From contig OZ242010.1 in the NCBI GenBank assembly GCA_965204745.1, forward strand, positions 5,283,461-5,347,460: a stretch of 64,000 nt of DNA, written 5' to 3'. Position numbers and translations under genes: made by a program. The DNA is from Candidatus Latescibacterota bacterium. GTDB lineage: Bacteria; Latescibacterota; UBA2968. Within the stretch, counting starts at the first letter, position 1, and each line of letters starts with the position of its first letter. The notes below the pieces were generated by a model. That model did not search any database, had not been told where the DNA came from, and saw nothing but the letters and a program-made list of their open reading frames with translations. Below are positions 40,996-63,706 of this stretch, in pieces.

Positions 40996-41082
40996 AGGGA
41001 CAATATACTTTCAGAACCGCCCATCCGTCAAGGTGTAGAAACTTCTCGCATGAACGAAATGGGTTTATTAAATTACGGGTCT

Positions 41083-44433: not shown

Positions 44434-44525
44434 TGATAGCCCCTAACACTATTGACCGTGCGGACCGCGCTATTGCCGAAGAGGCCATCGGCGCGGTGTT
44501 GGACAACGGAGAACTGATTGCTTGA
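44433..44525 (+). pseudogene. 30-codon ORF overlapping mcrB stop (TGATGA), truncated by family B repeat; possible mcrC remnant
   Basis: ATG at 44433 overlaps the McrB TGA. Reading frame terminates as the ctctcacc repeats begin. Confidence 0.2.
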
Positions 44526-44539
44526 ACGGTTGGGCGTTG

Positions 44540-44618
44540 GGCGGCCCTCTCACCTCTCACCTCTTGCCTCTTGCTTCTTGCCTCTCACCTCTCGCCTCTC
44601 ACCTCTCACCTTTCACCT
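44540..44618. repeat. Family B pyrimidine-rich octamer tandem repeat (ctctcacc/ctcttgcc)n
   Basis: Reverse-complement relative of the ggcaagag/gaggtgaga tracts at 6718-6766 and 28703-28880. Shares gggcggccc...caac. Confidence 0.7.
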
Positions 44619-44619
44619 T

Positions 44620-45618
44620 ATGATCAACTACATCATCCGCCGATTGTTGCACATGATCCCCACGCTGATCCTGATTTCCATGGTCAGCTTCGCGGTGATT
44701 CAAGCGCCGCCGGGCGATATGCTCACGTCTCGCCTCGCGGAATTGGCCGAGCAGGGCGAGTTGGGGTCCGAAAGCGCGATGGCGCAAATTGACGCCCTGC
44801 GCGAACGCTATGGGCTCAACGATCCGATCTACGTGCAATACGCGCGCTGGATCTGGAAAATCGTCAGCAAAGGCGATTTTGGGCAATCGTTCACGTACGA
44901 AATGGACGTGATGGAACTCTTGGCCGAACGCTTGGGACTCACCTTGACCCTGACGCTCTCCACCTTGATCTTTACGTGGATCGTCGCCATACCCATTGGC
45001 ATCTACTCGGCCACGCGGCAATATTCCATTGGGGATTACGGCTTTACCTTTCTCGGGTTCATCGGCCTTGCCACCCCCAACTTTTTGCTGGCACTGGTCA
45101 TTATGTTCATCCAAGTCTCGGTCTTTGAAGCCGAATCGGTCGGGGGGTTGCTCTCGCCCGAATACATCGGCGCGGCGTGGTCGTGGGCAAAATTTGTCGA
45201 TTTGCTCGAGCACATCTGGGTGCCCATTCTCGTCATTGGCACGGGCAGCACGGCGGGCATCATCCGCATTATGCGCGGCAACTTGCTCGACATCCTCGGG
45301 CAACAACACATTCAAACCGGGCGCGCCAAGGGCCTCAAAGAAGGCAAGGTCATCGTCAAGTACGGCGTCCGCATTGCCATCAACCCGTTGGTCAGCCGCC
45401 TCGGCCTCGAGTTGCCCGGCCTGCTCTCGGGCGCGGTTGTGACCGGCATCGTGCTCGGCTTGCCGACGGCCGGCCCCATTTTTTTGACCGCGCTCACGTC
45501 GCAAGACATGTACTTGGCGGGCGCATTCCTGCTCTTGGCCGCCACGTTTTTGCTCGTGGGCAATTTGTTGGCGGATATTCTTTTGGCATGGCTCGATCCG
45601 AGGATTCGCTATGAGTAG
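44620..45618 (+). CDS. ABC transporter permease (DppB/OppB-like)
   Basis: Start MINYIIRRLLHMIPTLILISMVSF is a typical DppB N-terminus. 6 TM. EAA-like loop. Confidence 0.8.
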   Translation: MINYIIRRLLHMIPTLILISMVSFAVIQAPPGDMLTSRLAELAEQGELGSESAMAQIDALRERYGLNDPIYVQYARWIWKIVSKGDFGQSFTYEMDVMELLAERLGLTLTLTLSTLIFTWIVAIPIGIYSATRQYSIGDYGFTFLGFIGLATPNFLLALVIMFIQVSVFEAESVGGLLSPEYIGAAWSWAKFVDLLEHIWVPILVIGTGSTAGIIRIMRGNLLDILGQQHIQTGRAKGLKEGKVIVKYGVRIAINPLVSRLGLELPGLLSGAVVTGIVLGLPTAGPIFLTALTSQDMYLAGAFLLLAATFLLVGNLLADILLAWLDPRIRYE

Positions 45619-46741
45619 CATCGATCAAACGACGCCGGAGGTACAGGCGGAAGAAGCCGCGACCGCGGGCACGTATTCGCAGCGCGAGTTGATCTGGCGG
45701 CGGTTCAAAAAACACCGCGCAGGCGTCGTGGGGGGATACGTGGTGCTCTTTCTGTATGTCTGCGTTTTCATGGGCGAATTTTTGGCGCCGCACGACCCGG
45801 CGCATCGCTACTACAACTACGTTCATTTGCCCGCGCAGCGCGTTCACATCTTTTCCGAGAACGGCATCCACTGGCCCTTTGTCTATGGGATCAAAAAGGC
45901 GTTTGACCGGCAAACCGGCATCAAAACCTATACGGAAGACGCCTCGGCGCGCTACCCGGTGTACCCGTTTGCCCGCGGCGCGGAATACGCATTTTACGGC
46001 CTCTTTCGCACGGATATTCACTTGTTTGGCACGGGCAAGGGCAACCCGCTGTTCCTCTTGGGCACGGACCGGTTTGGGCGCGACATGCTCTCGCGCATCA
46101 TCGTGGGCGGGCGCATCTCCCTCACCATTGGCCTGCTCGCGGTGCTCATCAGCCTCACCCTCGGCTCTGCGCTCGGCGTGATCTCGGGCTATTACGGCGG
46201 CCATGTCGATAACATCATCCAGCGCATCATCGAACTGATCTTTGCGTTTCCATCCATCCCCATTCTCATGGCCCTCAGCGCGATCTTGCCCCCAGAGTGG
46301 CCCTCGCATCTCGTTTTTATGGGCATCGTCACCGTGCTCGCGCTCGTGGGTTGGGGCGGCCTCGCCCGGGAAATCCGCGGCAAGACCCTGTCCATCCGCG
46401 AAGCCGATTTCGTGCTGGCGGCCCGCGTGGCCGGCGCCAAAGACAGGCGCGTCATTTTTCGGCACTTGCTCCCGTCGATGTTTAGCCACATCATCGTCAT
46501 CGCAACCCTGGCGATTCCGGGATTCATCCTCGGCGAAAGCACGTTGAGTTTTCTCGGCTTGGGCATCAAACCGCCCATGACCTCGTGGGGCTTGCTCTTG
46601 GCCGACGCGATGAATATTCACTCCCTCAGCTTGTATCCCTGGCTGCTTTTGCCCGGCGTGTGCATCATCATCGCGGTGCTCGCGTTCAATTTTCTCGGGG
46701 ATGGGTTGCGCGATGCCGCGGATCCGTATTCGAGCAGATAG
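45611..46741 (+). CDS. ABC transporter permease (DppC/OppC-like)
   Basis: 8-nt overlap with upstream permease. N-terminal cytoplasmic extension then 6 TM. Confidence 0.8.
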   Translation: MSSIDQTTPEVQAEEAATAGTYSQRELIWRRFKKHRAGVVGGYVVLFLYVCVFMGEFLAPHDPAHRYYNYVHLPAQRVHIFSENGIHWPFVYGIKKAFDRQTGIKTYTEDASARYPVYPFARGAEYAFYGLFRTDIHLFGTGKGNPLFLLGTDRFGRDMLSRIIVGGRISLTIGLLAVLISLTLGSALGVISGYYGGHVDNIIQRIIELIFAFPSIPILMALSAILPPEWPSHLVFMGIVTVLALVGWGGLAREIRGKTLSIREADFVLAARVAGAKDRRVIFRHLLPSMFSHIIVIATLAIPGFILGESTLSFLGLGIKPPMTSWGLLLADAMNIHSLSLYPWLLLPGVCIIIAVLAFNFLGDGLRDAADPYSSR

Positions 46742-46764
46742 CGCGGATCGTTTGAGGACTTCCC

Positions 46765-47754
46765 ATGACACAACCGCTTTTGGACATCTGCGACCTCAAA
46801 ACCTATTTTTACACGGACGATGGGATCGTGCGCGCAGTCGATGGCGTGTCCCTGTCCATGATGCCGCAACAGACCCTGGGCGTGGTGGGCGAATCCGGGT
46901 GCGGCAAAAGCATCACGGCATTTTCGACCATGCGCCTCATCCCAAGCCCGCCGGGCAAAATCGAAAACGGGCAGATTTTGTTTCGCAAAACCCCAAAAAG
47001 CGATCCCATCGACCTGACCCAACTCAACCCCAAAGGCGCGCAGATGCGCGGGATTCGCGGGAATGACATCGCCATGATCTTTCAAGAACCCATGACCTCG
47101 CTCAGCCCGGTCCACACCGTGGGCAACCAGATCGGCGAAGCCATTATGTTGCACCAAAATGCGGACAAAACCGAGGCTCGGGAACGCGCCATTGACGCGC
47201 TCAACAAGGTGCGCCTGCCGCGTCCGGACCGCCAGGTCGATGCCTATCCCCACGAACTTTCGGGCGGGATGCGCCAACGCGCGATGATCGCCATGGCCCT
47301 GTCGTGCAACCCCAACTTGCTCATCGCGGACGAACCCACCACGGCCTTAGATGTGACGGTGCAGGCCCAAATTTTGGACCTGATGCGCCAACTGCAATCC
47401 GATATCGGCATGGCGATTATGCTCATCACGCACGACTTGGGCGTGGTCGCCAGCATGGCGGATTACGTCGCGGTGATGTATTTGGGCAAGATCGTCGAGT
47501 ATGCCGACACGCGCACCATTTTCAAAAACCCGCGCCATCCCTATACCAAGGGCTTGCTGAACTCCCTTCCCCAAGTGGGGCACAAACGCCGGCTCGTGCC
47601 CATTGAAGGCGCGATTCCAGATCCGTTTGAAATCCCCCAGGGCTGTGCTTTTGCCCCGCGTTGCCCGCACGCCATGCGAAAGTGCCGCGAAGAACCGCAA
47701 CTCCTCGAAATCGCATCGGGCCATCGCGTGAGTTGTTGGTTGGAAAATGATTGA
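46765..47754 (+). CDS. ABC transporter ATP-binding protein (DppD/OppD-like)
   Basis: Walker A GESGCGKS, signature LSGGMRQR, Walker [14 protein letters not shown]-terminal oligopeptide-ABC extension with Cys motif. Confidence 0.85.
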
Positions 47755-48796
47755 TGGACAAAACGCCATGACAAAAACGAACGCGCAACCCCTCCTCGAA
47801 GTGACGCAACTCAAGACCCATTTCCCAATTAAAAAGGGCATTTGGCGGCGCGTGGTGGGCTATGTCAAGGCCGTAGATGGGATCGACCTGACCCTGTACC
47901 GCGGGGAGACCCTCGGTTTGGTGGGCGAATCCGGCTGCGGCAAGACCACGGCGGGGCGGTCGATCATTCGCCTGATCGAGCCTTCGGCTGGGAAGATCGT
48001 TTTCCACCACAACGGCGAGCCGATTGACCTGCGCGGCTTGGGCAAGGAAGATATCCGCAACCTGCGGCGCGAATTGCAATACATCTTCCAAGACCCCTTC
48101 TCGTCGCTCAACCCGCGCATGACGGTTTTCGACCTCGTGGCCGAACCCCTCGTCATCAACCGAGTCGCGTCCGGCGCCGAACTCGAAGACCGCATCGAGC
48201 AGTTGCTCATCCGCGTGGGCTTGCGTCCGGATCACCTGCGCCGCTATCCCCATGCGTTTTCGGGGGGGCAACGCCAGCGCATCGGCATTGCCCGCGCCCT
48301 CGCGCTCAATCCCAAACTCGTCATTGCCGACGAGCCGGTCTCTGCCCTCGACGTGTCCGTACAAGCGCAGGTCATCAACCTCCTCGAAGACCTGCAAGAA
48401 GCCTTTGGCCTGACGTATTTGTTCATCGCGCACGACCTCGGCGTCGTGGAACACATTTCGGATCGCGTGGCGGTGATGTACCTCGGTCAGATCATCGAGA
48501 TCACCACCTCTGAGCGGCTCTATCAAAATCCCCTGCATCCCTATACCGCGGCCCTTTTATCCGCCGTTCCAGTTGCGGACCCGGATGATCGACGCCAGCG
48601 CATCTCTATCGAAGGCGATGTGCCCGATCCCGCGGATGCCCCATCCGGATGCAAATTTCACACGCGCTGCCTGTACGCGCAGGACAAGTGCAAAACAGAA
48701 GCGCCCCAGCTAAGAGAAATCGAACCGGGGCACGAGGTGAGTTGCCACTTCGCGGGCGAACTCACATTCTCCGATCACCACGTCGAACCCGCTTGA
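47747..48796 (+). CDS. ABC transporter ATP-binding protein (DppF/OppF-like)
   Basis: Walker [10 protein letters not shown], signature FSGGQRQR, Walker [13 protein letters not shown]. 8-nt overlap with the upstream gene. Confidence 0.85.
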
Positions 48797-49104: not shown

Positions 49105-49429
49105 AGCAGACACCATTGAACTGCGCTTTCTCGGTCCGCAAGAAAAACGCAAGCAAGCCATTCGCGTACTCGATTCCATGGGCTTTGTGGATATATCCGA
49201 TTCAGTTCCCTGGCAGGCGTGTTTTTCGTATGCTGACGAACAGTTGCCCAGCATTTCTCTGGCGGGAGCAAGGGAAAAGGAAGGGTTGACACAACGAGAA
49301 CTGTCTCGGTTGACGGGCATTCCGCAACGACGTATTTCAGAAATGGAAAATGGCAAACGGCCCATTCAAAAAGAAACAGCGAAAAAACTGGGGAAAACAC
49401 TCAACATCAGCTATAAAGTCTTTCTGTGA
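49085..49429 (+). CDS. HTH XRE-family antitoxin (HigA-like)
   Basis: C-terminal helix-turn-helix LTQRELSRLTGIPQRRISEMENGKRPI. Overlaps the toxin 3' end by ~20 nt. Confidence 0.6.
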   Translation: MKKHRTEADTIELRFLGPQEKRKQAIRVLDSMGFVDISDSVPWQACFSYADEQLPSISLAGAREKEGLTQRELSRLTGIPQRRISEMENGKRPIQKETAKKLGKTLNISYKVFL

Positions 49430-49492
49430 ACCGACAGATCGCCTAAAAATATCCACTGAAATTTTTTGACGCTCGTCTTTCCGAGGGAAGCG

Positions 49493-50290
49493 ATGTCTTT
49501 GACGCAAGCGCAAATTGACCGCTTTCGCAAGTGGGGGTACGCGGTCGTGCCCGATATGTTCACGCGGCGGGAAGTGCGTGCGATGCGCGGGGAACTCGAC
49601 CGCTTCAAGCGCGAGGGGCTTCTCCGCAATGTGGCGACGGATGGCGATGGGCAAACCCATTCGCAAACGCAGATCAACTTGCAGATTTGCCCCATCACCC
49701 CCAAGAGTGCGTTTTACCGCGCCCTGCACTTTCACCCCAAGGTCATCGCGCTCGTCGAACAACTCATCGGCTCGCCCTTTGTGTTCTACCTCGATCAGAT
49801 CTTTCTCAAACCCGGCAAACAGGGCATTGGCACGGACTGGCATCAGGACAACGCCTATTTCAAAGTCAGGGACCCGGGCAAAGGCGTTGGGATGTGGGTT
49901 GCCCTGCACGATGCGACTATCGCCAACGGCACCTTGCACATCATTCCCGGCAGCCATCGAGAAAACCATGCCCACGACCGCGATCCCAACAGCGACCACC
50001 ACATTCACTGCGCCGTGCCCGAAGAGAGGGCCATCCCCATTGAATTGCCGGCCGGAGGCGCGGTCTTTTTTAATTTTGGCATCGCGCACAGCACCCGCGC
50101 AAATACCACAGCCCGAGAACGCGCGGGCCTTGCCCTGCATTTTTTGAACGCGGACTATATTCCCGAAAACATCAGAGGCACGCGGCGATATACCCACCTC
50201 ACAGGCCCTCTCGCCACGGGTGGGAAGAGGGAATACGGCCGCTGCATTGCCAACACTTGGCGCGATGAAGTGGATCGCGTGCTTGGGTGA
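49493..50290 (+). CDS. Phytanoyl-CoA dioxygenase (PhyH) family protein
   Basis: TDWHQDNAYF motif. N-terminal LTQAQIDRFRKWGYAVV is typical for the family. HxD...H iron ligands. Confidence 0.7.
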   Translation: MSLTQAQIDRFRKWGYAVVPDMFTRREVRAMRGELDRFKREGLLRNVATDGDGQTHSQTQINLQICPITPKSAFYRALHFHPKVIALVEQLIGSPFVFYLDQIFLKPGKQGIGTDWHQDNAYFKVRDPGKGVGMWVALHDATIANGTLHIIPGSHRENHAHDRDPNSDHHIHCAVPEERAIPIELPAGGAVFFNFGIAHSTRANTTARERAGLALHFLNADYIPENIRGTRRYTHLTGPLATGGKREYGRCIANTWRDEVDRVLG

Positions 50291-50594
50291 ATCGTGCGTG
50301 CCCATCCTCTCTACCCCGCCGCTTTGGGCGATGCCCCCGTGTCCGCCCGCCGAAAAAAAATTGAAATTAGCTGTTGACATGTTTCCCCAAATCAGATAGT
50401 TTTTGAGCAGAACATAGAACCTCGTGCTTTGATGCGTTTTGCATCTCTTCCGATCCCGATGGTCTCAGTCGGGAATCCTACGGGTTCGACAATCTGTAAC
50501 GGGATGCGCGGATTGTTTGGTTTTATTCGACAAGCCGATAATCCCGTTCGATTGCCCCACTTGGGATAGGGTGTCGCTTAACAAAGGAGTGGGA

Positions 50595-52394
50595 ATGAGC
50601 GAAGCCAAAGATGGCCGTTCTGGCCTTGTTTTTCCGCTACGCGATTCTTCTTCCGAAGAAATTTTCCTCATTGTGCAGTGCCTTCAGGACGCTGGTTTTT
50701 CCCGCCATGACCGAGCATGGCTGGTGCGCGTTTTTGAACGCCCAGATTGTTTTGGCGATCCCAACGGGGACGCTGTGTTGAAAGAGGCGTTTGCGGCTTC
50801 TTTTGAGCATGTTCTGCCCGGCGTCGTGGAAGAATTGGGCGAACCGGAGCAAACCGAGGAAGACAGGCAGAACCGCTTGGCACTTCTGTTCGGGTTCCTG
50901 CTTGGCTTTGGGCCGATCTACAGCGAGGTGGTTCTACCCGATGACAGGCTCGGAAAATCGGGCGACGCTTGGCATGTTCCCGCGTGGGTTGGCGCGTTCC
51001 AAAAGCACGCGAGGTTTTGTGCGAAAAGTCTGGGTTGGCAAAAACTCAATGCGTTGCGGGACGCGGGTGTTTTTCGATTCTTTGACCTGATTCCATTTCT
51101 CTTTCCCAAAGGCGTGCCATTGGCCCAGGTCGTGGAGTTGGGCTTGTTAAATCCGATTCTGCGACGCGGATGGTCGAGCGATGATTTTCGGGATCCCAGA
51201 GAACTCGAGTTTTGGTTGATCTGGCGATTTCGCACGGATGCCGAATGCCGCGACATGATTGACCTGCACACGTTATTGCGAGCGTTTTCAGAGTTTCCCG
51301 ATGGCGTTTTGGGCGATAAAATACTCGGGCTGTTGAACGCCATCGAATACGCTATGAACCTGGGATCGGCATTGGGCGATAAACGCCTGAATGCGTTGGG
51401 CGACGGATGGCGGGTTGTTGCACGGGAGTTGACGCCGTTTTGGGAACTGTTGAATGGGAAATCGCCAGAGTCGCAGCCGCAACCCTCATCCCTGCTCAAA
51501 GCATGGTGGCGGTTGGCTGTGGCGATTCACTACAAAAGTATGGGTGGGTTGGAATCCGATCTCGCCGATGAACTCAGGAACCAGCTCGTCGAAAGTGCCG
51601 CACGGCACATTGGGATTTTGCGAAAGATAGTGCGAGAAACGCCTGAAAATTTTGCAGGTAGGGATTCGACGGGAATGCCCGTTTCCGATTTTTACGACAA
51701 GGCGTTTGAAGTGCTGTGCATTTTTGCACCCCCGTGGAAATGTCTGAAGTCCTTATTGCTGGCTTTTTCCGAGATGACCGTGCCGGCCATTGCATCTGAT
51801 CTGCGGCCATGGGCAGAAGCGAACAGAGAAGCCCCGCCGCATCCGCATCATCACATCCCGCTGTGGATCGGCATCGCCATGTATCCGCAGAATCTTCGGA
51901 ATGAATTGAAGCGAGACCCGCACTTGCGGCGGTTGCGCGAGGAGTTCGCCAAATTTTGCCTCGACCGGCTCAAAACAAAAAAAATTGACACCGAGGCGAA
52001 AACCGAGGTGTCTGATTACGCAGATGAAGAATTTGTCGAACCGCGTCGCCCGTGGCGACGGTGCTATGTGCAAGCCGTAACCGCATTGCGCGTCAATCCC
52101 GGCGGCCGGGCGCACAGAACCCTGTTCTGGCTTTCTAGGAATGATCCGGATAAAACGGTCCGAGAATTTGCAAAACGAGCGCACGGACAAATTCGGCATC
52201 TCAACCGCAACAAATCGAATTTAGATCGCGGTGCATCACCCCGCCGCCCCCTATTTGAAGCCTTTTGGTGGCTTCGCCAAGCGCATCTGTTGACGCTCGA
52301 CAAACCGATTGATGAGGCGGGCGCGCTGCGAACGCGCAGAACGGAGTTGCACCGCACCCGCGAGAAAGCTGATCGCCTCAATTGGGAAGCATAG
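50595..52394 (+). CDS. Hypothetical protein (~600 aa, predominantly alpha-helical), no recognisable domain; immediately upstream of the pVip cassette
   Basis: AAGGAG SD 6 nt upstream of ATG 50595. Long uninterrupted ORF with coding-like third-position GC. ~52% GC, lower than core genes. Confidence 0.5.
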   Translation: MSEAKDGRSGLVFPLRDSSSEEIFLIVQCLQDAGFSRHDRAWLVRVFERPDCFGDPNGDAVLKEAFAASFEHVLPGVVEELGEPEQTEEDRQNRLALLFGFLLGFGPIYSEVVLPDDRLGKSGDAWHVPAWVGAFQKHARFCAKSLGWQKLNALRDAGVFRFFDLIPFLFPKGVPLAQVVELGLLNPILRRGWSSDDFRDPRELEFWLIWRFRTDAECRDMIDLHTLLRAFSEFPDGVLGDKILGLLNAIEYAMNLGSALGDKRLNALGDGWRVVARELTPFWELLNGKSPESQPQPSSLLKAWWRLAVAIHYKSMGGLESDLADELRNQLVESAARHIGILRKIVRETPENFAGRDSTGMPVSDFYDKAFEVLCIFAPPWKCLKSLLLAFSEMTVPAIASDLRPWAEANREAPPHPHHHIPLWIGIAMYPQNLRNELKRDPHLRRLREEFAKFCLDRLKTKKIDTEAKTEVSDYADEEFVEPRRPWRRCYVQAVTALRVNPGGRAHRTLFWLSRNDPDKTVREFAKRAHGQIRHLNRNKSNLDRGASPRRPLFEAFWWLRQAHLLTLDKPIDEAGALRTRRTELHRTREKADRLNWEA

Positions 52395-53967: not shown

Positions 53968-56529
53968 TTAATCCGCGACAATCCGCGATCCAGACTGGAG
54001 AAACCGGCCCGTGTGGGAAGTGGGAACGCGGGTGATCGCTTCGGGGGTGCCCGTGGCGACGATGTGCCCGCCGTTTTCGCCGGCGTCGGGGCCGAGGTCG
54101 ATGATCCAGTCGGCGCGTTTGATCACGTCGAGATTGTGCTCGATGACGAGCGCGGTATTGCCGCGATCCACGAGGCGGTCGAGCACTTCGATGAGCACGC
54201 GGATGTCGTCAAAGTGCAAGCCCGTGGTGGGTTCGTCGAGCAAGTACAGGGTCTTGCCCGTGGCACTGCGCGCCAGTTCAGTGGCGAGTTTCACGCGCTG
54301 TGCCTCGCCGCCGGACAATGAGGTGGCCGCCTGCCCCAAGCGCAAATAGCCCAGGCCCACGGCTGCGAGGGAGTTGAGGTGTCGCTGTGCGGCGGGAATG
54401 TTGCGGAAAAAGGACTGCGCCTGCGCGACGGTCATGTTCAACGCGTCGGCGATGGAACTGCCCTTGTACCGGACCTCGAGGGTTTCCCGGTTGTAGCGCG
54501 TGCCCGCGCAGGTGTCGCAAGTGACGAACACATCGGGCAAGAAGTGCATCTCGATGCGGCGCACCCCATCGCCCTGACAGGCTTCGCACCGCCCGCCCTT
54601 CACATTGAAACTGAACCGGCCCGCGCCATAACCGCGCACTCGGGATTCGGGCAGTTGCGCGTACAGGTCGCGGATGGCGGTGAACGCGCCGGTGTACGTG
54701 GCGGCATTGGATCGCGGGGTGCGCCCAATGGGCGATTGGTCGATGCGGATGACCTTGTCGAGTTGCCCCATGCCCTCTATTGCGCGATGGGGCAGGGGGT
54801 CTGCATTCGCGCGGTGAAAATGCCGGGCGAGCGCGGGATACAGGGTTTGGTCGATGAGCGAACTCTTGCCGGAGCCGGACACGCCGGTGACGCACACAAA
54901 AACGCCCAGTGGAATATCCACCTCCACGTCTTGCAAATTGTGCCCACGGGCGCCCCGAATCGAGAGATGGCCGTGCGGTTGGCGCGCATCCGGAGGCGGG
55001 GGAATGGTCTTGCGCCCCGAGAGATAATCGCCGGTGAGGGATCGTTCATCGGCCATCACGGTTCGCGGCGCACCCTTTGCGATCACCCGGCCCCCGTGTT
55101 CGCCCGCGCCCGGCCCGAGGTCGATGAGATAATCGGCCATTTCCATGGCTTCGCGGTCGTGCTCGACCACGATGACCGAATTGCCCAAATCGCGCAGATT
55201 GCAAAACGCTTTGATGAGTTTGCGATTGTCGCGGGGGTGCAGGCCAATGCTCGGTTCGTCGAGCACGTACAGGACGCCAACGAGGCGCGTGCCGATTTGC
55301 GTTGCCAAGCGGATGCGCTGAAATTCGCCACCGGAAAGCGTGGTTGCCCTGCGGTTGAGCGCGAGATACCCCACGCCCACATCTGCGAGAAAGCCGAGGC
55401 GGCTTTCGATTTCGCGGATCAGGGGCGCGGCGATCTCGGCGGCATTGTCTCGCAAGTCGAGCGTTTGAAAAAACCGCCTGATCCCATCGATGGGCAGGCG
55501 GGCGATATCGGCGATGGTGCTATCGGCAAGGGTGATGGCTAGCGCCTCTGCGCGCAAGCGCGTGCCATGGCACTCGGGGCAGGTTTGATCGCGCACGCGC
55601 GAATCGGAATCGCCCGGGGCCGGATCGCTGCTAGATGGAGGCTTGCTGAATAACTCCCCGTCAGCGCCTGCGTTGGAAACCGTCCCAAGGCCATCGCAGG
55701 TCGGGCAGGCGCCATAAGGGCTGTTGAAGGAAAACAAGCGCGGTTCGATGGCGTGGATTTCAAAATGGCCCTCTGTGCAGGCAAAGCGCGTGGAGAACGT
55801 CCAGTCGCCTTTGCCGACAATGTCGAGTGTGGCCGTGCCGTCGGCCAAATCGAGCGCGGTTTCGAGCGAATCCGCGAGGCGCGAAGCCAGGTTGCCGCGC
55901 ACCACCAAGCGATCCACGACCGCGTCAATGCTGTGCGCGGCGCGTTTGTCCAAGGTGATCGCACGGTCGAGCGGCAGAATCGCGCCATCCACGCGCACGC
56001 GCAGATAGCCCGCTTTTCGCAACTGCACAAAAACGCTTTGCTGCCCGCCTTTTGCATTGCGGACCAGCGGCGCGAGCACCTGAAGGCGTTGGCCTTCGGG
56101 CAAGGCGAGCACGCGATCCACGACTGCCGCGACCGTCTCTCGGACGATGACCTGCCCACAGACCGGACAATGCGGCGTGCCAACTCTGGCAAACAAGAGG
56201 CGCAAGTGGTCATAGACTTCCGTCAACGTGCCCACGGTCGAACGCGGTGTGCGGGGCATGCCGCGCTGTTGAATTGCCACCGCAGGCGAAAGACCTTCGA
56301 TGCTGTCGGCATCGGGCTTGTCCATCAAATCGAGAAATTGCCGCGCGTACGCAGACAGGGATTCGACATAACGGCGTTGCCCTTCGGCGTAGATCGTATC
56401 AAAAGCCAACGACGATTTGCCCGACCCGGAAGGCCCGGTGATCACGACCAGACAGTTGCGCGGAATGTCCAAGTCGATATTTTTGAGGTTGTGCTGCCGC
56501 GCACCGCGAATGGTGATCGTATCGCTCAT
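53968..56529 (-). CDS. uvrA: Excinuclease ABC subunit A (UvrA family), 853 aa
   Basis: N-terminus [66 protein letters not shown]. Two ABC modules with Zn-finger Cys clusters ([25 protein letters not shown]). Confidence 0.85.
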
Positions 56530-56591: not shown

Positions 56592-56620
56592 TTGACATCG
56601 CAAAAATTATTTATTAGCAT
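56592..56620 (+). promoter_or_regulatory. Candidate sigma70 promoter (TTGACA-17nt-TAGCAT) in divergent uvrA / M28-FtsX intergenic region
   Basis: TTGACA at 56592-56597. AT-rich spacer. TAGCAT at 56615-56620. Confidence 0.3.
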
Positions 56621-56763
56621 AAAATTCGCTTTGTTTGGATCCGTAAGGAGATATGGACGATAGCCTGCTCGTTCCCCTGCCTCTGGCTGTAAAAGTCCTA
56701 CATCGCGCCTAATTAGACTTGGAAACCGGATCGTCGTTTTCGCCTTTTAACAGGAGCTTTGCA

Positions 56764-59700
56764 ATGCGTAAAGTCGGCACAGGCATTCTTTGGGTCATCA
56801 CGATTTTGATGTTGTCGTCGGTGACTGTGTTCAACCCGGGGCAGGTGACGGATTTTTTCGTCACGCTTTTCAATATCAAACCGAGCATTCCCGAGCTCAA
56901 GCCCATCGAGATTTCGGAACGCGACCGCGAGATTCGGACCGTTGTCGAGTCCATTGCCCAAGAAGACGTGCGCCAAGTCATCGCGGACCTCTCGGCGATG
57001 GGATCGCGGGTGCCGGGCTATGCGGGGCATCGGCAGGCGTTTGAATACGTCAAACGGCAGTTTGAACAAATCGGTCTGGAAAACATCCAAGTCGAAGAAC
57101 ACCTGGTCACGGTGCCCATCGACAAAGGCGCGGCCCTTACCCTGACGGAAACCGGCGAAAAAATCGAGATTTACGGGTTCTGGCCGAACCACGTTCAAAC
57201 GCCTTCCATCCCCGGGGCCGGGGTTTCTGGCCCCCTGATTTACGGAGGCAAGGGGGCGTTTTCAGAACTCAATGGCAAACGGGTTGAAGGCAGCATCGTG
57301 TTGATGGATTTCGATTGCGACCAAGGATATCTCAGCCCGCGCATGCTCGGCGCGCAGGCGATTTTGTTTTACGACAATGGGCGCGTCACCCGAGGGCAAG
57401 CGATAGACAAGTTCTTGCCGGTGCCGGTTGACGTGCCCCGGTTCTGGGTGGAGAAAGCCGACGCGATGCGCCTGCTCGAGATGGCCGAAACCCAATCGCC
57501 AGAAGTGCATTTGACGTCGCGGATGGACTGGGAAGAAGTCCCGGCGTGGAACATCTTTGCCACCTTGCCCGGCTCGGATACGTATATCACCGAGCGCGAA
57601 GAGCGCAAGTGGAAGGATCAGCAAATCGCGTTGAGCGCGTTTTACGACGCGATTTCAGTCGTGCCCGCAATCGCGCCGGGCGCCGAGAACGCCTCGGGCA
57701 TGGCCGCGCTGTTGCACGCGGCGAAAATCCTCAAGCGGCATCCGCCGAAATACTCCGTGACCTTTTTGGCGACTGGCTCGCACTTTCAGGGCTTGGCCGG
57801 CATCAACGATTTCGTGTATCACCACGCGCGCGAAAGCGACCACTTCCGCGACAAAATTCCGGATAGTTTGTCCGCCGAGGGCGCGTATCTCGACGGGGAG
57901 TTCATTCACCGAGACAGCGAGGATTTCGAGGAGCTCATCCCGGACAGTTACAAGATCGACTTTCGGTTGTTCGTGGGCTTGGACTTGTCGAGCGAATCCG
58001 ACCAGTTGGCGAGTTTTTCGCACGGCACGTTTAACAACCCCAACTGGCAGACCGACAATTATCTGAACAATTTGCTCGCGCCTTATGCGGACAAGTTCGA
58101 CAAGTACATGGCCAAGGTTTTTCCCGGAGAGGAAAACCGGCATGTGGATGCCATCGCCCCGCCCAAGCGCACCTGGAAAAATTTCATGCCCATTCGCATG
58201 GGCTTCGACAGCGAGGCGGTCACGTTTGTGGGCAAAGAGGGCATTACCCTGGCCACGCCCTCGACCGTGCGTCGATTTGTCGATACGCCCATCGACCAGG
58301 TGGAGCGCGTCAACATGGACAATTTGACGCGCCAAGTGCAAACCGCGGTTGCGGCGATGATGAAGGCCGGCGAGGATGCCGAGTTTTTCAGGGTGTCCAA
58401 GCTCAAGTTGCAAGACCGCGGGCACAGCTTGTCCGGGCGCGTGTTGTGGTTTGACCGCAATGTGGATTTCGCCTTGCCCCGCGTGCCGGTGCCGGGCGCC
58501 GTGGTCACGTATCGGCAACCGGGCAATGTGCCGAGTTGTGCGGGCGTCCGCACCTTGATCATCGACAAGACCACGCGCGGGCCGATTTACGATGTCGATA
58601 AATTGGCGGGCGGCAGGACCGATGTGGATCCCAACTTGTTTGGCAAAGAGGAGCGCGTCAAAGAAACCGGGGTGTTTTCCTTCGACATTATGCGGAACCG
58701 CTTTACCAATCGCATTTTGTCCTACGACATTGACGAGGAGGGCAGAATCACGTCCGCGCCGGATATGGGGTCCGAAGGCGAGGACAAGTTCCCCTTGCTC
58801 CAGCGGTATGGCTGGTGGGAAAACGAAATGATAACGGTGTTGTTCAAGTGCCGCTCCATCAGCGTTTTTGAAATCATCGACTCGAGTTATTTGTCCGCGC
58901 TCGATTTTATGACCGTGCTCAACGAGAACGACACCACGCCCCTGGAATTTGGCAACACGTACTTGCCCGGGCAAAGCACCAAAGAGGGCGATGTGACGCG
59001 CGCCGCGGTGACATTTGCGCGCATCGATGAAGTCACGGGCGAGGCCGAGCGCCTGAAGGTGTTGATGAGCACGGGCCTGTTTGGGGTGAAGTACTTGCTG
59101 ATCAACGCGCCGCAGGAATTTTTGGACACGCCGATTGACAAGAGCCAAGTGAATCCCACGCTCTTGGAAGAGGCGCGGGGCGAGGGCTACGCGCCCGGGG
59201 TCATTTTCCGACCCTCGTATCAGGCGGCGCGAGATATGTGGGTCATCGACGACGTGCGGATGAAACAACTCGCGCAATTCGGCATTGAGAACAACCGCCT
59301 CACCCTGTTGCACAACAGCGCGCGCGAGGCCCTCCTCGAAGCCCGCCAATACCTGGAAAATTTGGATTACGAAGGCTTTATGGCCGCTTCGCGGCGCGCC
59401 TGGGGCCTCGAGGCACGCGGGTACCCAGAGGTGATGGCAACGGCCAACGACACGGTGCGGGGCATTATTTTTTATTTTATTTTGCTGCTCCCGTTTTCGT
59501 TTTTCTGCGAGCGGTTGTTGATCGGCGCGTCGAGCATTACGGCGCGCTTGAGTTGGTTCGCCGCGTTTTTCATATTTTTCTTCATCGTGTTGCGCTTCGT
59601 CCACCCGGCCTTTCAGCTGAGCAATTCCCCGTACATCATCTTTCTCGCATTTGTGATCATGGCCTTGGGCGGGGTGGCCATGGTCATCGTGGTGTCCAAA

Positions 59701-61617
59701 TTCGGGGACGAAGTTCGCAAGATGAAACAGGCTTCTGCCGGCACGTACGAAGCGGACGTGGGGCGCATCAGCGCGACGTCGGCCGCGGTCGTGCTGGGGA
59801 TTTCCAACCTGCGGAAGCGGCCCATGCGAACCGGGTTGACGGCGATTACCCTCACCTTGTTGACGTTCACAACCCTGTCCTTTACGTCCGTGCAAACGTC
59901 CCTGAAATTTTACAAATTGCCCCGCGACAACGAGCCGTCTTACCAAGGGGCATTGGTGCGCGACCGGTCGTGGCGCGGCATGCAGGAATCCGTGCTCAAC
60001 TACTTGCACAGCGCGTTTGAGGGCCGCGCGGATATCGTGCCGCGGTCGTGGTATTTGTCGCAGGTGCGCGGGGAACGCGCTTACGTGAATTTTTCGCGCG
60101 TGACCGAGGCCACCGCAGATATGGGCCCCAAAGAGATTTACGCGGATTTCGACGTGGGCATCACCACGGGCAAAGACAGCTTTGTCAACGCGCTATTGGG
60201 CCTCACCCCGGACGAAACCAAAATCACCGGCGCGGATCGGTATTTGATGAGCGGGCGGTGGTTCCAGCCCGGGGAGGAGTTCGTCTGCTTGTTGCCCAAT
60301 GACTTGGCGGAACTCGTGGGGATTTTCCCGGAAGACGCGGGCACGGCGAAAATCGAAATGCAGGGGCAGATTTTTACCGTGATCGGCATTCTCGATTCCG
60401 AGGCGTTTAATAAGTTCAAGGATTTGGACGACGAAAAGCTGACCCCGGTCGATACGGTGAAGGAAAAAGACGACTTGGCAGACGCGCAAGACCAAGACCC
60501 GCGCGTGGTCGCCGCCGCGCCTATCGAAACCTTTACGCATCTGGAATCGACGAATGTGCTCGTCGTGCCCTACGAGTACATCCGCGACATCGGGGGCGTG
60601 TTGGCGTCGGTTGCTATCGCCAATTTCAAGGATGACAGCGGGCAGCCCAAATCGGATTTCGTGCCGGATATCGAGGAGTTCATGGCGCGCGTGTCCCTGA
60701 CGATGTTCGTGGGCAAAGGCGAAGGCGTCACGGTGTACAGTTCGATAGGGTCCACATCGCTTTCCGGCTTGGGCAATTTGTTCATTCCCATTTTGATCGC
60801 CGCGCTCATCGTGCTCAATACCATGATGGGCGCCGTGTACGAACGCTTCCGCGAGATCGGGATTTATTCATCGGTGGGCTTGGCGCCCAATCACATCGCC
60901 GCGCTTTTCCTCGCCGAGGCCGGCGTGTTTGCCACCCTCGGCGCGGTGATGGGCTATTTGATCGGACAGGTGCTCGTGCTCGTGTTGTACAACCAGGGCT
61001 TGTTGGGCGGGCTGGAATTGAATTACTCGTCCCTGTCCGCGATTTCCGCCACCCTGATCGTGATGGCAACGGTGTTTCTCTCCGCGCTTTATCCGGCGAA
61101 AAAAGCCGCGGATATGGCCGTGCCCGACGTGACCCGCAAGTGGGAATTTCCAGATCCGGATGGGGACCGCTGGGTGTTCGACTTTCCCTTTACCGTGGGC
61201 GGGGCCGAGGTCTTGGGCATGTATTCCTATCTGACGCGGGTGTTCGAATCTTATGGCGAGGGGTCCGTAGGCGATTTCGTGGCGGACCACGTCAAGTTCT
61301 GGTCCGAGGATCACGCGGGCGAGCCGCAGTACAATATCGACCTGACCGCGTGGTTGGCGCCTTATGATTTGGGCATCAGCCAGGAAGTGCAACTCAAGGC
61401 GATTCCCACGGGGGAACACAATATTTACAAGATCGAGGTGATCATCAATCGCTTGAGTGGCGATGTGGCGTCGTGGAAGCGGATCAATCGCGGATTTTTG
61501 AATGTGCTGCGTAAGCGGTTCCTGGTGTGGCGCACCATTCCGGGGGACATGAAGTTCAATTACGCAGAAGAAGGCCGCCGGATCTTGTCTGGCGAAGTTT
61601 TGGAAGAAGTCGCATAA
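56764..61617 (+). CDS. Fusion protein: N-terminal PA/M28 zinc peptidase ectodomain + MacB/FtsX-type permease (4 TM with large periplasmic domain) + C-terminal cytoplasmic domain
   Basis: AGGAG 8 nt before ATG 56764. M28 signatures (...PGAENASGMAALLHAAKIL, HH pairs). TM cluster. MacB-like TM1 LRKRPMRTGLTAITLTLLTF. FtsX core LNTMMGAVYERFREIGIYSSVGLAPNHIAALFLAEAGVFATLGAV. ~170-aa C-terminal tail. Confidence 0.7.
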   Translation: MRKVGTGILWVITILMLSSVTVFNPGQVTDFFVTLFNIKPSIPELKPIEISERDREIRTVVESIAQEDVRQVIADLSAMGSRVPGYAGHRQAFEYVKRQFEQIGLENIQVEEHLVTVPIDKGAALTLTETGEKIEIYGFWPNHVQTPSIPGAGVSGPLIYGGKGAFSELNGKRVEGSIVLMDFDCDQGYLSPRMLGAQAILFYDNGRVTRGQAIDKFLPVPVDVPRFWVEKADAMRLLEMAETQSPEVHLTSRMDWEEVPAWNIFATLPGSDTYITEREERKWKDQQIALSAFYDAISVVPAIAPGAENASGMAALLHAAKILKRHPPKYSVTFLATGSHFQGLAGINDFVYHHARESDHFRDKIPDSLSAEGAYLDGEFIHRDSEDFEELIPDSYKIDFRLFVGLDLSSESDQLASFSHGTFNNPNWQTDNYLNNLLAPYADKFDKYMAKVFPGEENRHVDAIAPPKRTWKNFMPIRMGFDSEAVTFVGKEGITLATPSTVRRFVDTPIDQVERVNMDNLTRQVQTAVAAMMKAGEDAEFFRVSKLKLQDRGHSLSGRVLWFDRNVDFALPRVPVPGAVVTYRQPGNVPSCAGVRTLIIDKTTRGPIYDVDKLAGGRTDVDPNLFGKEERVKETGVFSFDIMRNRFTNRILSYDIDEEGRITSAPDMGSEGEDKFPLLQRYGWWENEMITVLFKCRSISVFEIIDSSYLSALDFMTVLNENDTTPLEFGNTYLPGQSTKEGDVTRAAVTFARIDEVTGEAERLKVLMSTGLFGVKYLLINAPQEFLDTPIDKSQVNPTLLEEARGEGYAPGVIFRPSYQAARDMWVIDDVRMKQLAQFGIENNRLTLLHNSAREALLEARQYLENLDYEGFMAASRRAWGLEARGYPEVMATANDTVRGIIFYFILLLPFSFFCERLLIGASSITARLSWFAAFFIFFFIVLRFVHPAFQLSNSPYIIFLAFVIMALGGVAMVIVVSKFGDEVRKMKQASAGTYEADVGRISATSAAVVLGISNLRKRPMRTGLTAITLTLLTFTTLSFTSVQTSLKFYKLPRDNEPSYQGALVRDRSWRGMQESVLNYLHSAFEGRADIVPRSWYLSQVRGERAYVNFSRVTEATADMGPKEIYADFDVGITTGKDSFVNALLGLTPDETKITGADRYLMSGRWFQPGEEFVCLLPNDLAELVGIFPEDAGTAKIEMQGQIFTVIGILDSEAFNKFKDLDDEKLTPVDTVKEKDDLADAQDQDPRVVAAAPIETFTHLESTNVLVVPYEYIRDIGGVLASVAIANFKDDSGQPKSDFVPDIEEFMARVSLTMFVGKGEGVTVYSSIGSTSLSGLGNLFIPILIAALIVLNTMMGAVYERFREIGIYSSVGLAPNHIAALFLAEAGVFATLGAVMGYLIGQVLVLVLYNQGLLGGLELNYSSLSAISATLIVMATVFLSALYPAKKAADMAVPDVTRKWEFPDPDGDRWVFDFPFTVGGAEVLGMYSYLTRVFESYGEGSVGDFVADHVKFWSEDHAGEPQYNIDLTAWLAPYDLGISQEVQLKAIPTGEHNIYKIEVIINRLSGDVASWKRINRGFLNVLRKRFLVWRTIPGDMKFNYAEEGRRILSGEVLEEVA

Positions 61618-61651
61618 CGCGCATTCGTGGATTCCTTACCGGGAGGCAATT

Positions 61652-63706
61652 TTGGCAACCGAACCGAGAGATGCGGAAGAAACAAAAGAGGACCTGGCGG
61701 AATACGAACAAATTATGCCAGAGGACGCGCCCTTTGAAGAGGGCTTTGGCTGGAAGACGATTTGGGCGACGGTGTTCGTGGGCTTGGTGATGCTGCCCGG
61801 CGCGATTTATCTGGGCTTGGTGACGGGCCAAAGCATGGCCGGCGCGTCCGAGTGGGTGACGATCATTCTCTTTCTCGAGATTGCCAAACGCTCGTTTGTG
61901 CGCCTCAAAACGCAGGAAATTTTGATCATCTACTGGGTGGCCGCGGGCCTGTTGGGCATCGGCGTGAAACTCGGCTCGGGCGCGCATCTGTACGGCGGGC
62001 CTTTTGGCGGCCTGATCTGGGACCAGTATTTGATTCAATCGCCCGCGGCAATGGGCCTGGATAAATACATTCCCAACTGGGTGACGCCCCCGCTCGATTC
62101 GCCCGTGTATGCGGACCGCACCTTCGTCCATCAGGACTGGGCTTTGCCGGTGTTGATTCTGTTCTTGGTCATGATCATCAACCAGACTGCGCGCTTGTCC
62201 TTTGGGTACGTGATGTTCCGCATTACCAGCGATATCGAGCAACTGCCCTTTCCGCTCGAGCCGGTTCACGCGCGCGGGTGTACTGCACTGGCCGAGACCT
62301 CGTCCAAGACCGAGGGTTGGCGGTGGCGCGTGTTTAGCACGGGGACGTGTATTGGGCTCGTCTGGGGCTTGCTCTACGTGGTCGTGCCCACATTGTCCGG
62401 CATTTTCCTAACCGAGACCGTTCAGGTCTTGCCCATTCCATTTATCGACTTTACGGCCGAGGTCAAGACCATCTTGCCCGCTGCGGTGTTTGGACTGGGA
62501 ACGGATTTGGGGCATGTGTTGCTCGGGTTCGTCCTGCCGTTCTACGTGGTGGTCGGGTCCTTTATCGGCGCGGTGCTCGGCAATTTGGTGATCAATCCCA
62601 TGCTCTATCTCCACACGGATGTGTTGAGCCGCTGGGCGCCTGGCATGACGGCGATTCCCGCGAGCATTTCCAATCGCTTCGACTTCTGGTTGAGCTTTGG
62701 GATCGGCACGTCTATCGTGATCGCGCTCACCGGGTTTTACATGGTGGGCAAAACCCTGCTGGAACAGCGCAAGATGCAACGGGAAACCGGGCATCATTCC
62801 CTAAAAATTAGCCTGGATGATTTGCCAGAAGGGCGCGGGGATATCGCGCTGAAGTGGCCCCTGGTCTTGTGGGTGCTGGCTTCTTTTGCCGCCATTGGCT
62901 TGTGCTATTGGCTCGTGCCCGAATTTCACTGGGGTTGGCTGGTTTTCTTCGCGTTTATTTATACGCCTGTGTCGTCTTATATCGGCGCGCGGATGATCGG
63001 CCTGACGGGCAGCCCTTATGGAGCGAGCATTCCCTATATTCGGGAAGCGGCCATTTTGCTGTCGGGGTACAAGGGCGTGGCCGTGTGGTTCGCCCCCATT
63101 CCCCTGCACGACCACGGGTTGGCCGTGCGGTCATTCAAGCAACTGGAATTGACCAAGACGAAGATCGGCAGTTATGTCAAAATGGTGGCGATCACGTCGG
63201 TTGTGATTTTCCTGTGTAGCTTCATGTTCTACGAGTTTATCTGGCGTTTGGGCCCCATTCCATCTTCGACTTATCCCTACGTGCAACTGTTCTGGCCCTT
63301 TGAAGCCACGATGCAGACGATGTGGCTCAAATCGACTTTGCCCCCCGGCGAAGTGCAGGGCGCCGCTGGTTTGGAACTCCTGCGGGATATCATCAAGCCG
63401 AAATACATCGGCGTCGGGTTGGTTTCGGGCGGGCTTATCTACGTGGCACTGGTCGCCATCAAGGTTCCCGTGCTGGCGTTTTTCGGATTTGTGAATGGCC
63501 TGGCCCAATGGCCGCACTTCGTCATTTTGAACTTTGCCGGCGCCATGCTCGGTCGCTACCATTTTTCCAAGCGGTTCGGCGAGTCCAAATGGAAGGCTTA
63601 CGCGCCGATTTTGTTGGCGGGCTATTCCTGCGGCATGGGCCTGATCGGCATGACTTCGATAGCCGTGGCGCTGATTTCCAAGGCCGTGTCTCAGGTGGTG
63701 TTTTGA
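61652..63706 (+). CDS. Polytopic membrane protein (>=14 TM), putative OPT-family oligopeptide transporter
   Basis: 684 aa, very hydrophobic with regularly spaced TM helices. 35 nt downstream of the M28-FtsX gene (operon). Family assignment is tentative. Confidence 0.4.
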   Translation: MATEPRDAEETKEDLAEYEQIMPEDAPFEEGFGWKTIWATVFVGLVMLPGAIYLGLVTGQSMAGASEWVTIILFLEIAKRSFVRLKTQEILIIYWVAAGLLGIGVKLGSGAHLYGGPFGGLIWDQYLIQSPAAMGLDKYIPNWVTPPLDSPVYADRTFVHQDWALPVLILFLVMIINQTARLSFGYVMFRITSDIEQLPFPLEPVHARGCTALAETSSKTEGWRWRVFSTGTCIGLVWGLLYVVVPTLSGIFLTETVQVLPIPFIDFTAEVKTILPAAVFGLGTDLGHVLLGFVLPFYVVVGSFIGAVLGNLVINPMLYLHTDVLSRWAPGMTAIPASISNRFDFWLSFGIGTSIVIALTGFYMVGKTLLEQRKMQRETGHHSLKISLDDLPEGRGDIALKWPLVLWVLASFAAIGLCYWLVPEFHWGWLVFFAFIYTPVSSYIGARMIGLTGSPYGASIPYIREAAILLSGYKGVAVWFAPIPLHDHGLAVRSFKQLELTKTKIGSYVKMVAITSVVIFLCSFMFYEFIWRLGPIPSSTYPYVQLFWPFEATMQTMWLKSTLPPGEVQGAAGLELLRDIIKPKYIGVGLVSGGLIYVALVAIKVPVLAFFGFVNGLAQWPHFVILNFAGAMLGRYHFSKRFGESKWKAYAPILLAGYSCGMGLIGMTSIAVALISKAVSQVVF

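Follow-up and report, generated by a model that had tools for sequence, protein, structure and literature searches.

What drives a type VII ATP-binding cassette (ABC) permease that has no ATPase gene beside it, and what does such a permease do with a peptidase-like head on its own polypeptide? This question is raised by a locus in a 64,000-nt window (the whole stretch of DNA analysed) from the genome of Candidatus Latescibacterota bacterium (contig OZ242010.1), in which a gene for a 1,617-amino-acid (aa) membrane protein, here called the giant protein, is followed by a gene for a 684-aa polytopic membrane protein. Type VII ABC systems (MacB, LolCDE, FtsEX, BceAB) are the model for cytoplasmic ATP hydrolysis that drives work outside the membrane. 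To our knowledge, all members characterised so far have a dedicated ATPase, and their extracytoplasmic client is a separate one. A first-pass annotation of the locus had suggested a peptide-trimming and uptake module or a mechanically regulated peptidase. We find a conserved envelope module of two genes and propose, with a probability of about 0.5, that it is a MacB-style mechanotransmission module with a non-catalytic, receptor-like M28-fold head that serves the neighbouring transporter.

Gene Structure and Family Distribution

The giant gene (56764..61617, forward strand) encodes a fusion of a PA/M28-like ectodomain, a MacB-type permease and a cytoplasmic tail, with eight transmembrane (TM) segments. 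It is a single open reading frame (ORF), open from TTG 56719 or ATG 56764 to the stop at 61617 with no stop inside. A ribosome-binding site (RBS), AGGAG at 56752-56756, lies 7 nt ahead of ATG 56764, the homologs of the family start at the same position (consensus MxK... in the family alignment), and a database protein (P0001) is 100% identical to the 1,617-aa product from this ATG.

A search of 5.8 billion proteins gave 492 matches, among which more than 100 were full-length (1,480-1,760 aa, 48-81% identity). The full-length matches are labelled mostly Latescibacteria or Latescibacterota, a few carry Gemmatimonadetes or Planctomycetes labels of metagenome-assembled genomes (MAGs), and homologs are named only 'M28 family peptidase', 'FtsX-like permease family protein' or 'hypothetical' in the databases. 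A genome scan found 57 loci, nearly all in Latescibacterota MAGs, the closest of which (L006, OZ251458.1) has 96% identity. An exhaustive phmmer search with the N-terminal half against 1.84 billion representatives returned 1,890 matches, 714 of them (clusters at 50% identity) at E≤1e-30; most were 1,450-1,800 aa long, and a few, of 2,400-3,050 aa, have Ig-like domains added at the N-terminus. Hidden Markov models built for the N-terminal half, the three-TM block, the periplasmic domain, the FtsX core and the tail each matched all 110 near-full-length representatives (at least 1,400 aa), which reach down to ~31% identity. Shorter matches form a graded size series, as is common where metagenomic genes are truncated. 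At 32% identity, one member carries the annotation Candidatus Hydrogenedentota. A literature search found no paper that mentions an FtsX-M28 fusion.

The covalent fusion of M28-like domain and permease, which the first-pass annotation had recognised, is genuine and not a frameshift artefact. The alternative that an M28 protein gene and an FtsX permease gene were merged by a sequencing or assembly error, or by a missed stop, is close to inconceivable: no point in its support was found, the frame is continuous, the same architecture recurs at the 57 genome loci in independent assemblies and in 110/110 long representatives, and the graded series of shorter matches is consistent with truncation at contig ends.

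Two giant paralogs (P0011 and P0025) are encoded on one 5.46-Mb contig, which suggests that a genome holds several modules that differ in specificity. Three members, P0243 (2,930 aa), P0247 (3,053 aa) and P0356 (2,451 aa), are extended at the N-terminus by ~1,200 residues that precede the M28-like domain, and in P0243 this extension includes Big_5 Ig-like domains.

Module Layout and Topology

The giant protein consists of five modules: a PA/M28-fold ectodomain, a beta-rich domain with a helical stalk, a three-TM block, a type VII permease and a cytoplasmic domain. Hydropathy gave eight TM segments, at residues 4-22, ~899-919, 925-945, 955-978, 1023-1045, 1333-1355, 1378-1408 and 1424-1446, and the resulting topology is self-consistent. 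The N-terminus is inside, residues 23-897 are outside and three TM segments lead the chain back to the cytoplasm, followed by a cytoplasmic amphipathic helix, TM1, the periplasmic residues 1046-1332, TM2, the coupling helix, TM3-4 and a cytoplasmic tail of 166 aa. For structure prediction with AlphaFold2 (AF2) the protein was modelled as two halves from a 44-sequence alignment, the N-terminal half covering residues 26-930 and the C-terminal half residues 925-1617. The model of the N-terminal half reached a pLDDT of 84.7 and a pTM of 0.83.

The chain begins with an N-terminal signal-anchor helix, TM0 (residues 4-22, 56773..56829, forward strand like all parts of the gene), which has a hydropathy peak of 2.01 and the residues MRK just before it. 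The ectodomain, with a PA domain and an M28 fold (~residues 50-535, 56911..58368), is discussed below. It is followed by a beta-rich periplasmic domain of unknown type (~residues 555-790, 58426..59133), seen in the AF2 secondary structure of the N-terminal half and without Pfam match, and by three long stalk helices that run toward the membrane (~residues 817-919, 59212..59520; helices 792-813, 819-840 and 844-894 of the AF2 N-half segment), possibly a dimerisation region like that in the transferrin receptor. The extra three-TM block (~residues 897-978, 59452..59697), delineated by hydropathy and the family alignment, brings the chain back to the cytoplasm; it is rich in invariant positions and is carried by 110/110 representatives. 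The first-pass annotation had described three parts, namely ectodomain, permease and cytoplasmic tail. These parts are correct, and the beta-rich domain, the helical stalk and the three-TM block had been missed.

The Permease Module and the Cytoplasmic Domain

The C-terminal half is a complete type VII (MacB/LolC/FtsX-like) ABC permease module. Pfam FtsX (PF02687) matches residues 1340-1450 with 51.4 bits against a cut-off of 25.5 (E 1.3e-13). In a phmmer search against PDB sequences, residues 1323-1455 align with MacB, YtrF, LolC and LolF (MacB 5lil, E 1.5e-8), and the alignments to MacB 5lil and YtrF 9o9x span TM2, the coupling helix and TM3-4. Foldseek with the C-terminal half retrieved MacB, LolC/LolE, YtrF and HrtB at E 1e-11 to 1e-7, and further matches were a pneumococcal Spr0694-type permease, BceB, YbbP and the FtsEX/EnvC structure 8w6j. 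The FtsX/MacB-type core claimed at first pass is thus present.

The four-TM unit of type VII permeases is found with TM1 at residues 1023-1045, TM2-4 at 1333-1446 and a large extracytoplasmic domain in between. The MacB-type amphipathic helix (motif NLRKRPMRTGLT) and TM1 together occupy residues 1000-1045 (59761..59898; helices 76-94 and 96-116 of the AF2 C-half). The periplasmic domain between TM1 and TM2 (residues 1046-1332, 59899..60759) is of the MacB Porter/Sabre type; AF2 gives it an alpha/beta fold with high confidence, Foldseek matched the isolated periplasmic region of E. coli MacB (5c59, E 8.8e-4, TMt 0.51) and PF12704 MacB_PCD is listed for several homologs. The FtsX core, assigned by Pfam and phmmer (residues 1333-1451, 60760..61116), comprises TM2, the coupling helix (VYERFREIGIYSSVG), TM3 and TM4.

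The coupling helix sequence VYERFREIGIYSSVG aligns with VTERTKEIGVRMAIG of MacB and is invariant in the giant family. AF2 places this helix at residues 1362-1370 and the amphipathic helix at 1000-1018. Invariant residues of the family are E1360, R1361, E1364, I1365 and G1372 at the coupling helix (an ER..EIG motif) and N1015, L1016, R1019 and R1022 at the amphipathic helix. In MacB, contact with the nucleotide-binding domain (NBD) is made by the amphipathic helix that precedes TM1 and by the major coupling helix that lies between TM2 and TM3 (PMC5985334). The invariance of ER..EIG is as expected if an NBD-type partner still docks at the coupling helix.

With MacB, LolC/LolE, YtrF and HrtB the giant protein shares the amphipathic helix, TM1, the large periplasmic alpha/beta domain, TM2-4 and the coupling helix between TM2 and TM3. 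It differs from them by ~1,000 additional N-terminal residues (TM0, M28-like ectodomain, beta domain, stalk and three TM segments), by an additional C-terminal cytoplasmic domain of 166 aa and by an ATPase that is neither fused nor adjacent. This conserved cytoplasmic domain (residues 1452-1617, 61117..61614) agrees with the ~170-aa tail noted at first pass, and AF2 predicts for it a compact beta-alpha-beta4-alpha2 fold. It has a mean column identity of 67% in the family alignment, is as conserved as the permease core and was found in 110/110 representatives. When 12 members were scanned with Pfam and the PDB was searched with a profile, the tail had no meaningful match; matches to designed Kelch proteins were dismissed as spurious short repeats.

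Search for an Energy Source

No ABC ATPase is fused to the giant protein, and those that the window was found to encode are UvrA and the OppD/F proteins of a separate Opp-type importer. Genes for an NBD were searched at 62 loci with up to 10 kb of flank, with a regular expression for the Walker A, signature and Walker B regions (validated on OppD/F of the window) and with tblastn using the OppD/F NBDs. Two of the 62 loci had such a gene. One is of the UgpC/MalK type and was discarded as a partner, since it stands beside a MalG permease and is unrelated. The other (L043, 12599-13348) is the sole LolD/MacB-type ATPase gene of the 62 loci; it lies 4.4 kb downstream of the gene pair on a contig that ends at 13662. 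A cognate ATPase, fused or adjacent, of the kind that goes with type VII permeases was therefore not found in the window, as the first-pass annotation had observed, nor, with the exception of the L043 gene, within 10 kb at the 62 homologous loci.

NCBIfam ADOP (TIGR03434) gave a weak match to the giant protein (19 bits against a cut-off of 622). The name ADOP denotes 'orphan' permeases without an adjacent ABC ATPase gene. The giant protein resembles these in its FtsX-type permease and differs from them in that ADOP proteins consist of duplicated FtsX units in tandem and have no M28 ectodomain; at this score it is not a member.

It could be argued that the system is an ATPase-independent machine, in which the ABC ATPase has been lost and the C-terminal domain has taken the place of the NBD on the coupling helix. 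Variants of this idea are a passive or ligand-gated accessory and receptor subunit of the transporter and a BceB-like transmembrane sensor that signals periplasmic ligand binding to the cytoplasm through its tail. Type VII permeases usually adjoin their ATPase, whereas 61 of the 62 loci lack a MacB-type ATPase within 10 kb, and the tail is as universal and strongly conserved as described above while having no detectable homolog in Pfam or the PDB. Since the tail is universal and without Pfam or PDB relatives, the mechanism may be ATPase-independent or tail-regulated. Against it, the ER..EIG motif and the amphipathic helix, the sites of NBD contact in MacB, are invariant, and orphan FtsX permeases of the ADOP kind are not assumed to be ATPase-free. 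Together with its variants we consider the ATPase-independent machine possible, if on the unlikely side. A trans-encoded ATPase is favoured because both NBD-contacting helices are invariant, which parallels the orphan permeases of the ADOP subfamily. The cytoplasmic driver of the proposed mechanotransmission module would most likely be of the LolD/MacB type, with its gene at another site in the genome.

The M28-Like Ectodomain

Both profile match and structural comparison assign the M28 fold to the ectodomain. Pfam Peptidase_M28 (PF04389) matches residues 281-358 with 30.8 bits against a cut-off of 21.3 (E 3e-7), which covers only profile positions 11-83 of 193, and in the phmmer search of PDB sequences two aminopeptidases, YwaD and AAP, align with residues 287-381. 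Foldseek with the N-terminal half retrieved PA-domain M28 aminopeptidases (2ek8, BSAP 6hc6, PaAP), transferrin receptor 1 (TfR1) and GCPII/GCPIII at E 1e-22 to 1e-16. Nicalin gave a weak match.

The active site has been remodelled. The functional positions of AAP (1amp numbering) were mapped through the phmmer alignments to AAP and YwaD. The metal ligand H97 corresponds to F293, the bridging ligand D117 to E308, the general base E151 to S339 and the metal ligand E152 to H340. The remaining metal ligands, D179 and H256, correspond to D407 (LFVGLDLSS vs SALQLDMTN) and S483 (GFDSEAVTF vs the usual SDHxxF), a mapping by motif position that is anchored by the downstream alignment of FVDTPIDQVE with WYHTPEDSIE. 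The motif at E308 reads G-A-E-N-A-S-G, i.e. ENASG, and not the DNASG zinc signature that had been reported for it.

The same substitutions are found throughout the family. In 44 aligned homologs, position 293 is Y (23), F (14) or H (7), position 308 is E in all but one (D), position 339 is G (23), A (18) or S (3) and position 483 is S in 37, with N, A, H or C in the rest; position 340 is H, position 407 D and position 484 E in all 44. In 149 representatives (50% identity clusters) the general-base position holds G (80), A (56), S (6), C (1) or P (1) and is gapped in five. No Glu was found at this position in any of the 188 aligned family sequences (the 44 homologs and 144 of the 149 representatives), and no member among the 149 representatives has the canonical H-D-EE set. 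Family-wide, position 293 is Y/F (H in ~10%), 308 is E (D in ~15%), 340 is a near-invariant H, 407 is D and 483 is S/A/G. The five M28 ligands His-Asp-Glu-Asp-His (AAP H97, D117, E152, D179 and H256) are thus not retained as a set, the first and the last His being mostly lost. In sum, a Glu ligand has become an invariant His, the bridging Asp has become Glu, and the general base and two His ligands are gone.

Without the general-base Glu and with two ligands lost, the classical co-catalytic zinc mechanism is not usable, and canonical M28 catalysis was rejected on the site composition of the 44 homologs and 149 representatives. Canonical aminopeptidase activity of the ectodomain is, as far as sequence can tell, unlikely. 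At the same time D295, H340, D407 and E484 are invariant in the 44-homolog alignment, and the remodelled state is therefore ancient and under selection. Most likely the ectodomain is a repurposed pocket that would bind a ligand or metal and act as an adaptor rather than a protease.

Precedents for such a role exist, as TfR1 and nicalin are non-catalytic M28-fold binding modules. TfR1, nicalin and GCPII resemble the giant protein in a type-II-like N-terminal anchor, in an M28 core into which a PA domain is inserted and in a helical region that follows the protease-like part. They differ from it in being eukaryotic and having a single TM segment without a permease module, and GCPII keeps the full catalytic set whereas the giant protein does not.

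These data bear on the idea that the giant protein is an active, membrane-anchored M28 aminopeptidase that is switched on mechanically and whose trimmed peptides are imported by a downstream transporter of the OPT family. The M28 fold with its Pfam match, the four invariant residues, which suggest a functional pocket, and the tight linkage of the two genes agree with it, and the Opp-type peptide importer 8-16 kb upstream makes peptide use plausible for the organism. Its catalytic part conflicts with the missing general base (188/188) and with the equivalents of H97 and H256, mostly Y/F and S/A/G, and the zinc signature on which it drew was misread; neither the trimming of peptides nor a peptidase under mechanical control is thus borne out in its canonical form. 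Furthermore, the genes that abound at homologous loci are sugar-related (GH20, AXE1, GFO/IDH/MocA, UxuA) and not peptide-related. Together with the results on the downstream gene given below, this makes the combination of an active peptidase with an OPT importer unlikely.

The Downstream Membrane Protein

The partner gene (61652..63706, forward strand) starts with TTG 34 nt past the stop of the giant gene and 5 nt after the RBS GGGAGG. Its 684-aa product has ~14 hydrophobic segments by hydropathy, so that the first-pass description of a gene ~35 nt downstream with at least 14 TM segments holds, and it has 1,316 homologs. Nothing in Pfam or NCBIfam matched it at E≤1, a PDB profile search found no solved relative and tblastn found none on plasmids.

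The protein had been considered possibly a member of the OPT family. The OPT profiles of Pfam and NCBIfam (PF03169/TIGR00728) matched none of 31 members of the 684 family at E≤10, and with the PDB search and the plasmid tblastn also empty, OPT membership was rejected. Faint precomputed PF03169 entries for nine homologs of ~91-92% identity and the name 'peptide transporter' given to some homologs at NCBI are what the import step of the active-peptidase idea can cite; the 0/31 result speaks against it.

The window protein and its 31 relatives have no Pfam match to DUF6785/DUF6784 (PF20581/PF20580) either. A profile-profile comparison (hhalign) of the 684 family with a DUF6785-type family gave 93.4% probability and E 2.5e-7 over only 147 of ~670 columns, including an ER-L-P-F-P motif, and pairwise BLAST of the 684-aa protein against DUF6785 proteins was not significant, so that the link is seen by profile-profile comparison only. 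On these profiles we classify the 684-aa protein as a remote relative of DUF6785/DUF6784 and not as a member. It resembles both DUF6785/DUF6784 proteins and OPT proteins, the latter being oligopeptide transporters with ~12-16 TM segments, in size and in its many TM segments, and differs in that the 684 family has no OPT or DUF6785 match in Pfam, no OPT match in NCBIfam and no solved homolog. A literature search found no paper that mentions DUF6785.

The link between the fusion gene and the downstream polytopic gene, implied by the first-pass reading, is supported by synteny. A 684-type homolog is directly downstream on the same strand, with a gap of ~34-250 nt, in ~45 of 50 loci with enough flank, and at one locus (L005) it is found two genes upstream of the giant gene. 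A paralog group with 56% identity is flanked by ~655-aa DUF6785+DUF6784 proteins instead (Pfam E 1e-99), and four loci (L003, L004, L043 and L049) carry both partner types. The 651-aa ORF at 50439-52394 (forward strand), tried as an alternative partner, is unrelated to the 684 family.

The synteny also bears on whether the giant protein might act in envelope remodelling, on cell-wall, lipoprotein or surface-protein substrates in the manner of FtsEX-EnvC or LolCDE, with the neighbouring gene being incidental or regulatory. Its structural kinship to LolC/E, FtsX and YtrF fits this, as do the use of a dead metallopeptidase domain as an extracytoplasmic adaptor in FtsEX-EnvC and the occurrence of 684-type proteins without a giant neighbour. 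However, the same-strand adjacency with its 34-250 nt gap is kept across 46-96% identity and has its counterpart in the paralog group with its DUF6785-type partners, and several paralogous pairs per genome (P0011, P0025) fit substrate-specific uptake better than housekeeping. We therefore regard an envelope-remodelling role as very unlikely, and return to a mechanotransmission module that serves the neighbouring transporter.

Some genes recur around members of the giant and 684 families. At L002 (1-24713), L005 (16643-24620) and L063 (8001-16199) these are genes for DUF4159, DUF4350-like, FG-GAP/UnbV_ASPIC, GFO/IDH/MocA, UxuA and FGE-sulfatase proteins, a hint that glycans or sugar acids are used and not peptides.

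Proposed Function of the Two-Gene Module

In the proposed mechanism, the coupling helix between TM2 and TM3 and the stalk helices would relay cytoplasmic events to the periplasmic domain, in the way known from MacB, LolCDE and FtsEX. A LolD/MacB-type ATPase encoded in trans would be the driver, and the C-terminal domain may modulate or replace it. The movement would reposition the covalently attached M28-like head rather than a separate partner such as EnvC. For the polytopic transporter encoded by the next gene, the presumed translocating partner, the head could then capture or present a substrate outside the cytoplasm, which might be the terminus of a peptide or glycopeptide. The data show the architecture, its conservation across the family, the remodelled site, the synteny and the lack of an adjacent ATPase; that the protein dimerises, how it is energised, which ligand it takes and that it is physically coupled to the second gene product are those parts of the mechanism that we infer.

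The closest functional parallel is FtsEX-EnvC (and FtsX-PcsB/RipC/CwlO), where an FtsX-type permease is likewise coupled to a non-catalytic extracytoplasmic metallopeptidase-fold domain. The LytM domain of EnvC is degenerate. The adaptor of the giant protein differs in having an M28 instead of a LytM/M23 fold and in being covalently fused instead of non-covalently bound; moreover, its gene has no adjacent FtsE-type ATPase and is found in the context of a transporter gene, not of cell division.

Several points weigh against this mechanism. Firstly, no cognate ATPase partner was identified in the window or in the flanks, of up to 10 kb, of the 62 loci. Secondly, the equivalents of D179 and H256 were mapped by motif position and not by residue-level structural superposition, and the ectodomain may hold a mononuclear metal site (E308, H340 and E484 or D407) with non-canonical hydrolase activity. 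Thirdly, the AF2 model of the C-terminal half is of moderate confidence only (pLDDT 73, pTM 0.46) and covers the domains, not their arrangement. Lastly, a physical interaction between the giant protein and the 684-aa protein is suggested by synteny only, and a 60%-identical 684-type homolog is found without a giant neighbour (L063-L065), beside DUF4159, UxuA and AP_endonuc_2. From the latter it follows that the partner can work alone, and the 684-type protein is probably an autonomous transporter that is assisted by the giant protein.

Each of the domain types is known already, and automated annotation labels the proteins. The fixed five-module architecture, the site remodelled across the family, the unclassified cytoplasmic domain, the missing neighbouring ATPase and the pairing with a DUF6785-type protein were found described nowhere. 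The family is a test case for how mechanotransmission modules are energised, for pseudo-enzymes as adaptors and for the role of uncharacterised DUF6785-type membrane proteins, and it may bear on nutrient acquisition by uncultured polymer-degrading Latescibacterota. Should the ATPase gene just lie in another part of the genome and the head serve for binding, the module would be an architectural variant that is interesting but incremental. The boldest version would be a new class of envelope machine in Latescibacterota, Hydrogenedentota and related uncultured bacteria, in which an ATPase-free type VII permease, with a novel domain at the NBD docking site, couples a dead-M28 head to a transporter of the DUF6785 superfamily for substrate capture and uptake, with several paralogous specificities per genome. 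We hold this version doubtful.

Other Features of the Window

Upstream of the giant gene, uvrA (53968-56529) is on the opposite strand, in a divergent arrangement. A consensus scan of the gap between the two genes found a promoter-like site, TTGACA-17-TAGCAT (56592..56620, forward strand, 10/12 matches); the count of such hexamer pairs in the region is not above shuffle expectation, and the site is weak evidence of a promoter. Further upstream, the 347-aa ORF at 49337-50380 (reverse strand) and the 651-aa ORF mentioned above have no Pfam match. A complete Opp/Dpp-type ABC importer (SBP_bac_5, two permeases and the OppD/F ATPases) is encoded at 40882-48796, and a gene for an AAA_5 (dynein-related/MoxR-like) ATPase (43045-44433) is wedged between its binding-protein and permease genes.

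A low-GC island at 31398-34714 (GC 0.466 against ~0.57-0.60 around it) holds a gene for an Eco57I/TaqI-like N6 DNA methylase (31398-33143, forward strand) and a 524-aa ORF without Pfam match (33140-34714, reverse strand), and is probably a horizontally acquired restriction-modification element. At 36482-37723 (reverse strand) a 413-aa TnpB/IS605 OrfB-type protein with a Cas12f1-like TNB domain is encoded. Two adjacent giant ORFs at 10610-23717 (reverse strand) encode proteins of 2,457 and 1,971 aa with fibronectin type III, GLUG, Calx-beta and type IX secretion system (T9SS)-associated galactose-binding-like domains, which are probably huge surface or adhesin-type proteins. Lastly, two RND transporters of the AcrB/AcrD/AcrF family are encoded at 18-3077 (forward strand) and 25506-28853 (reverse strand).

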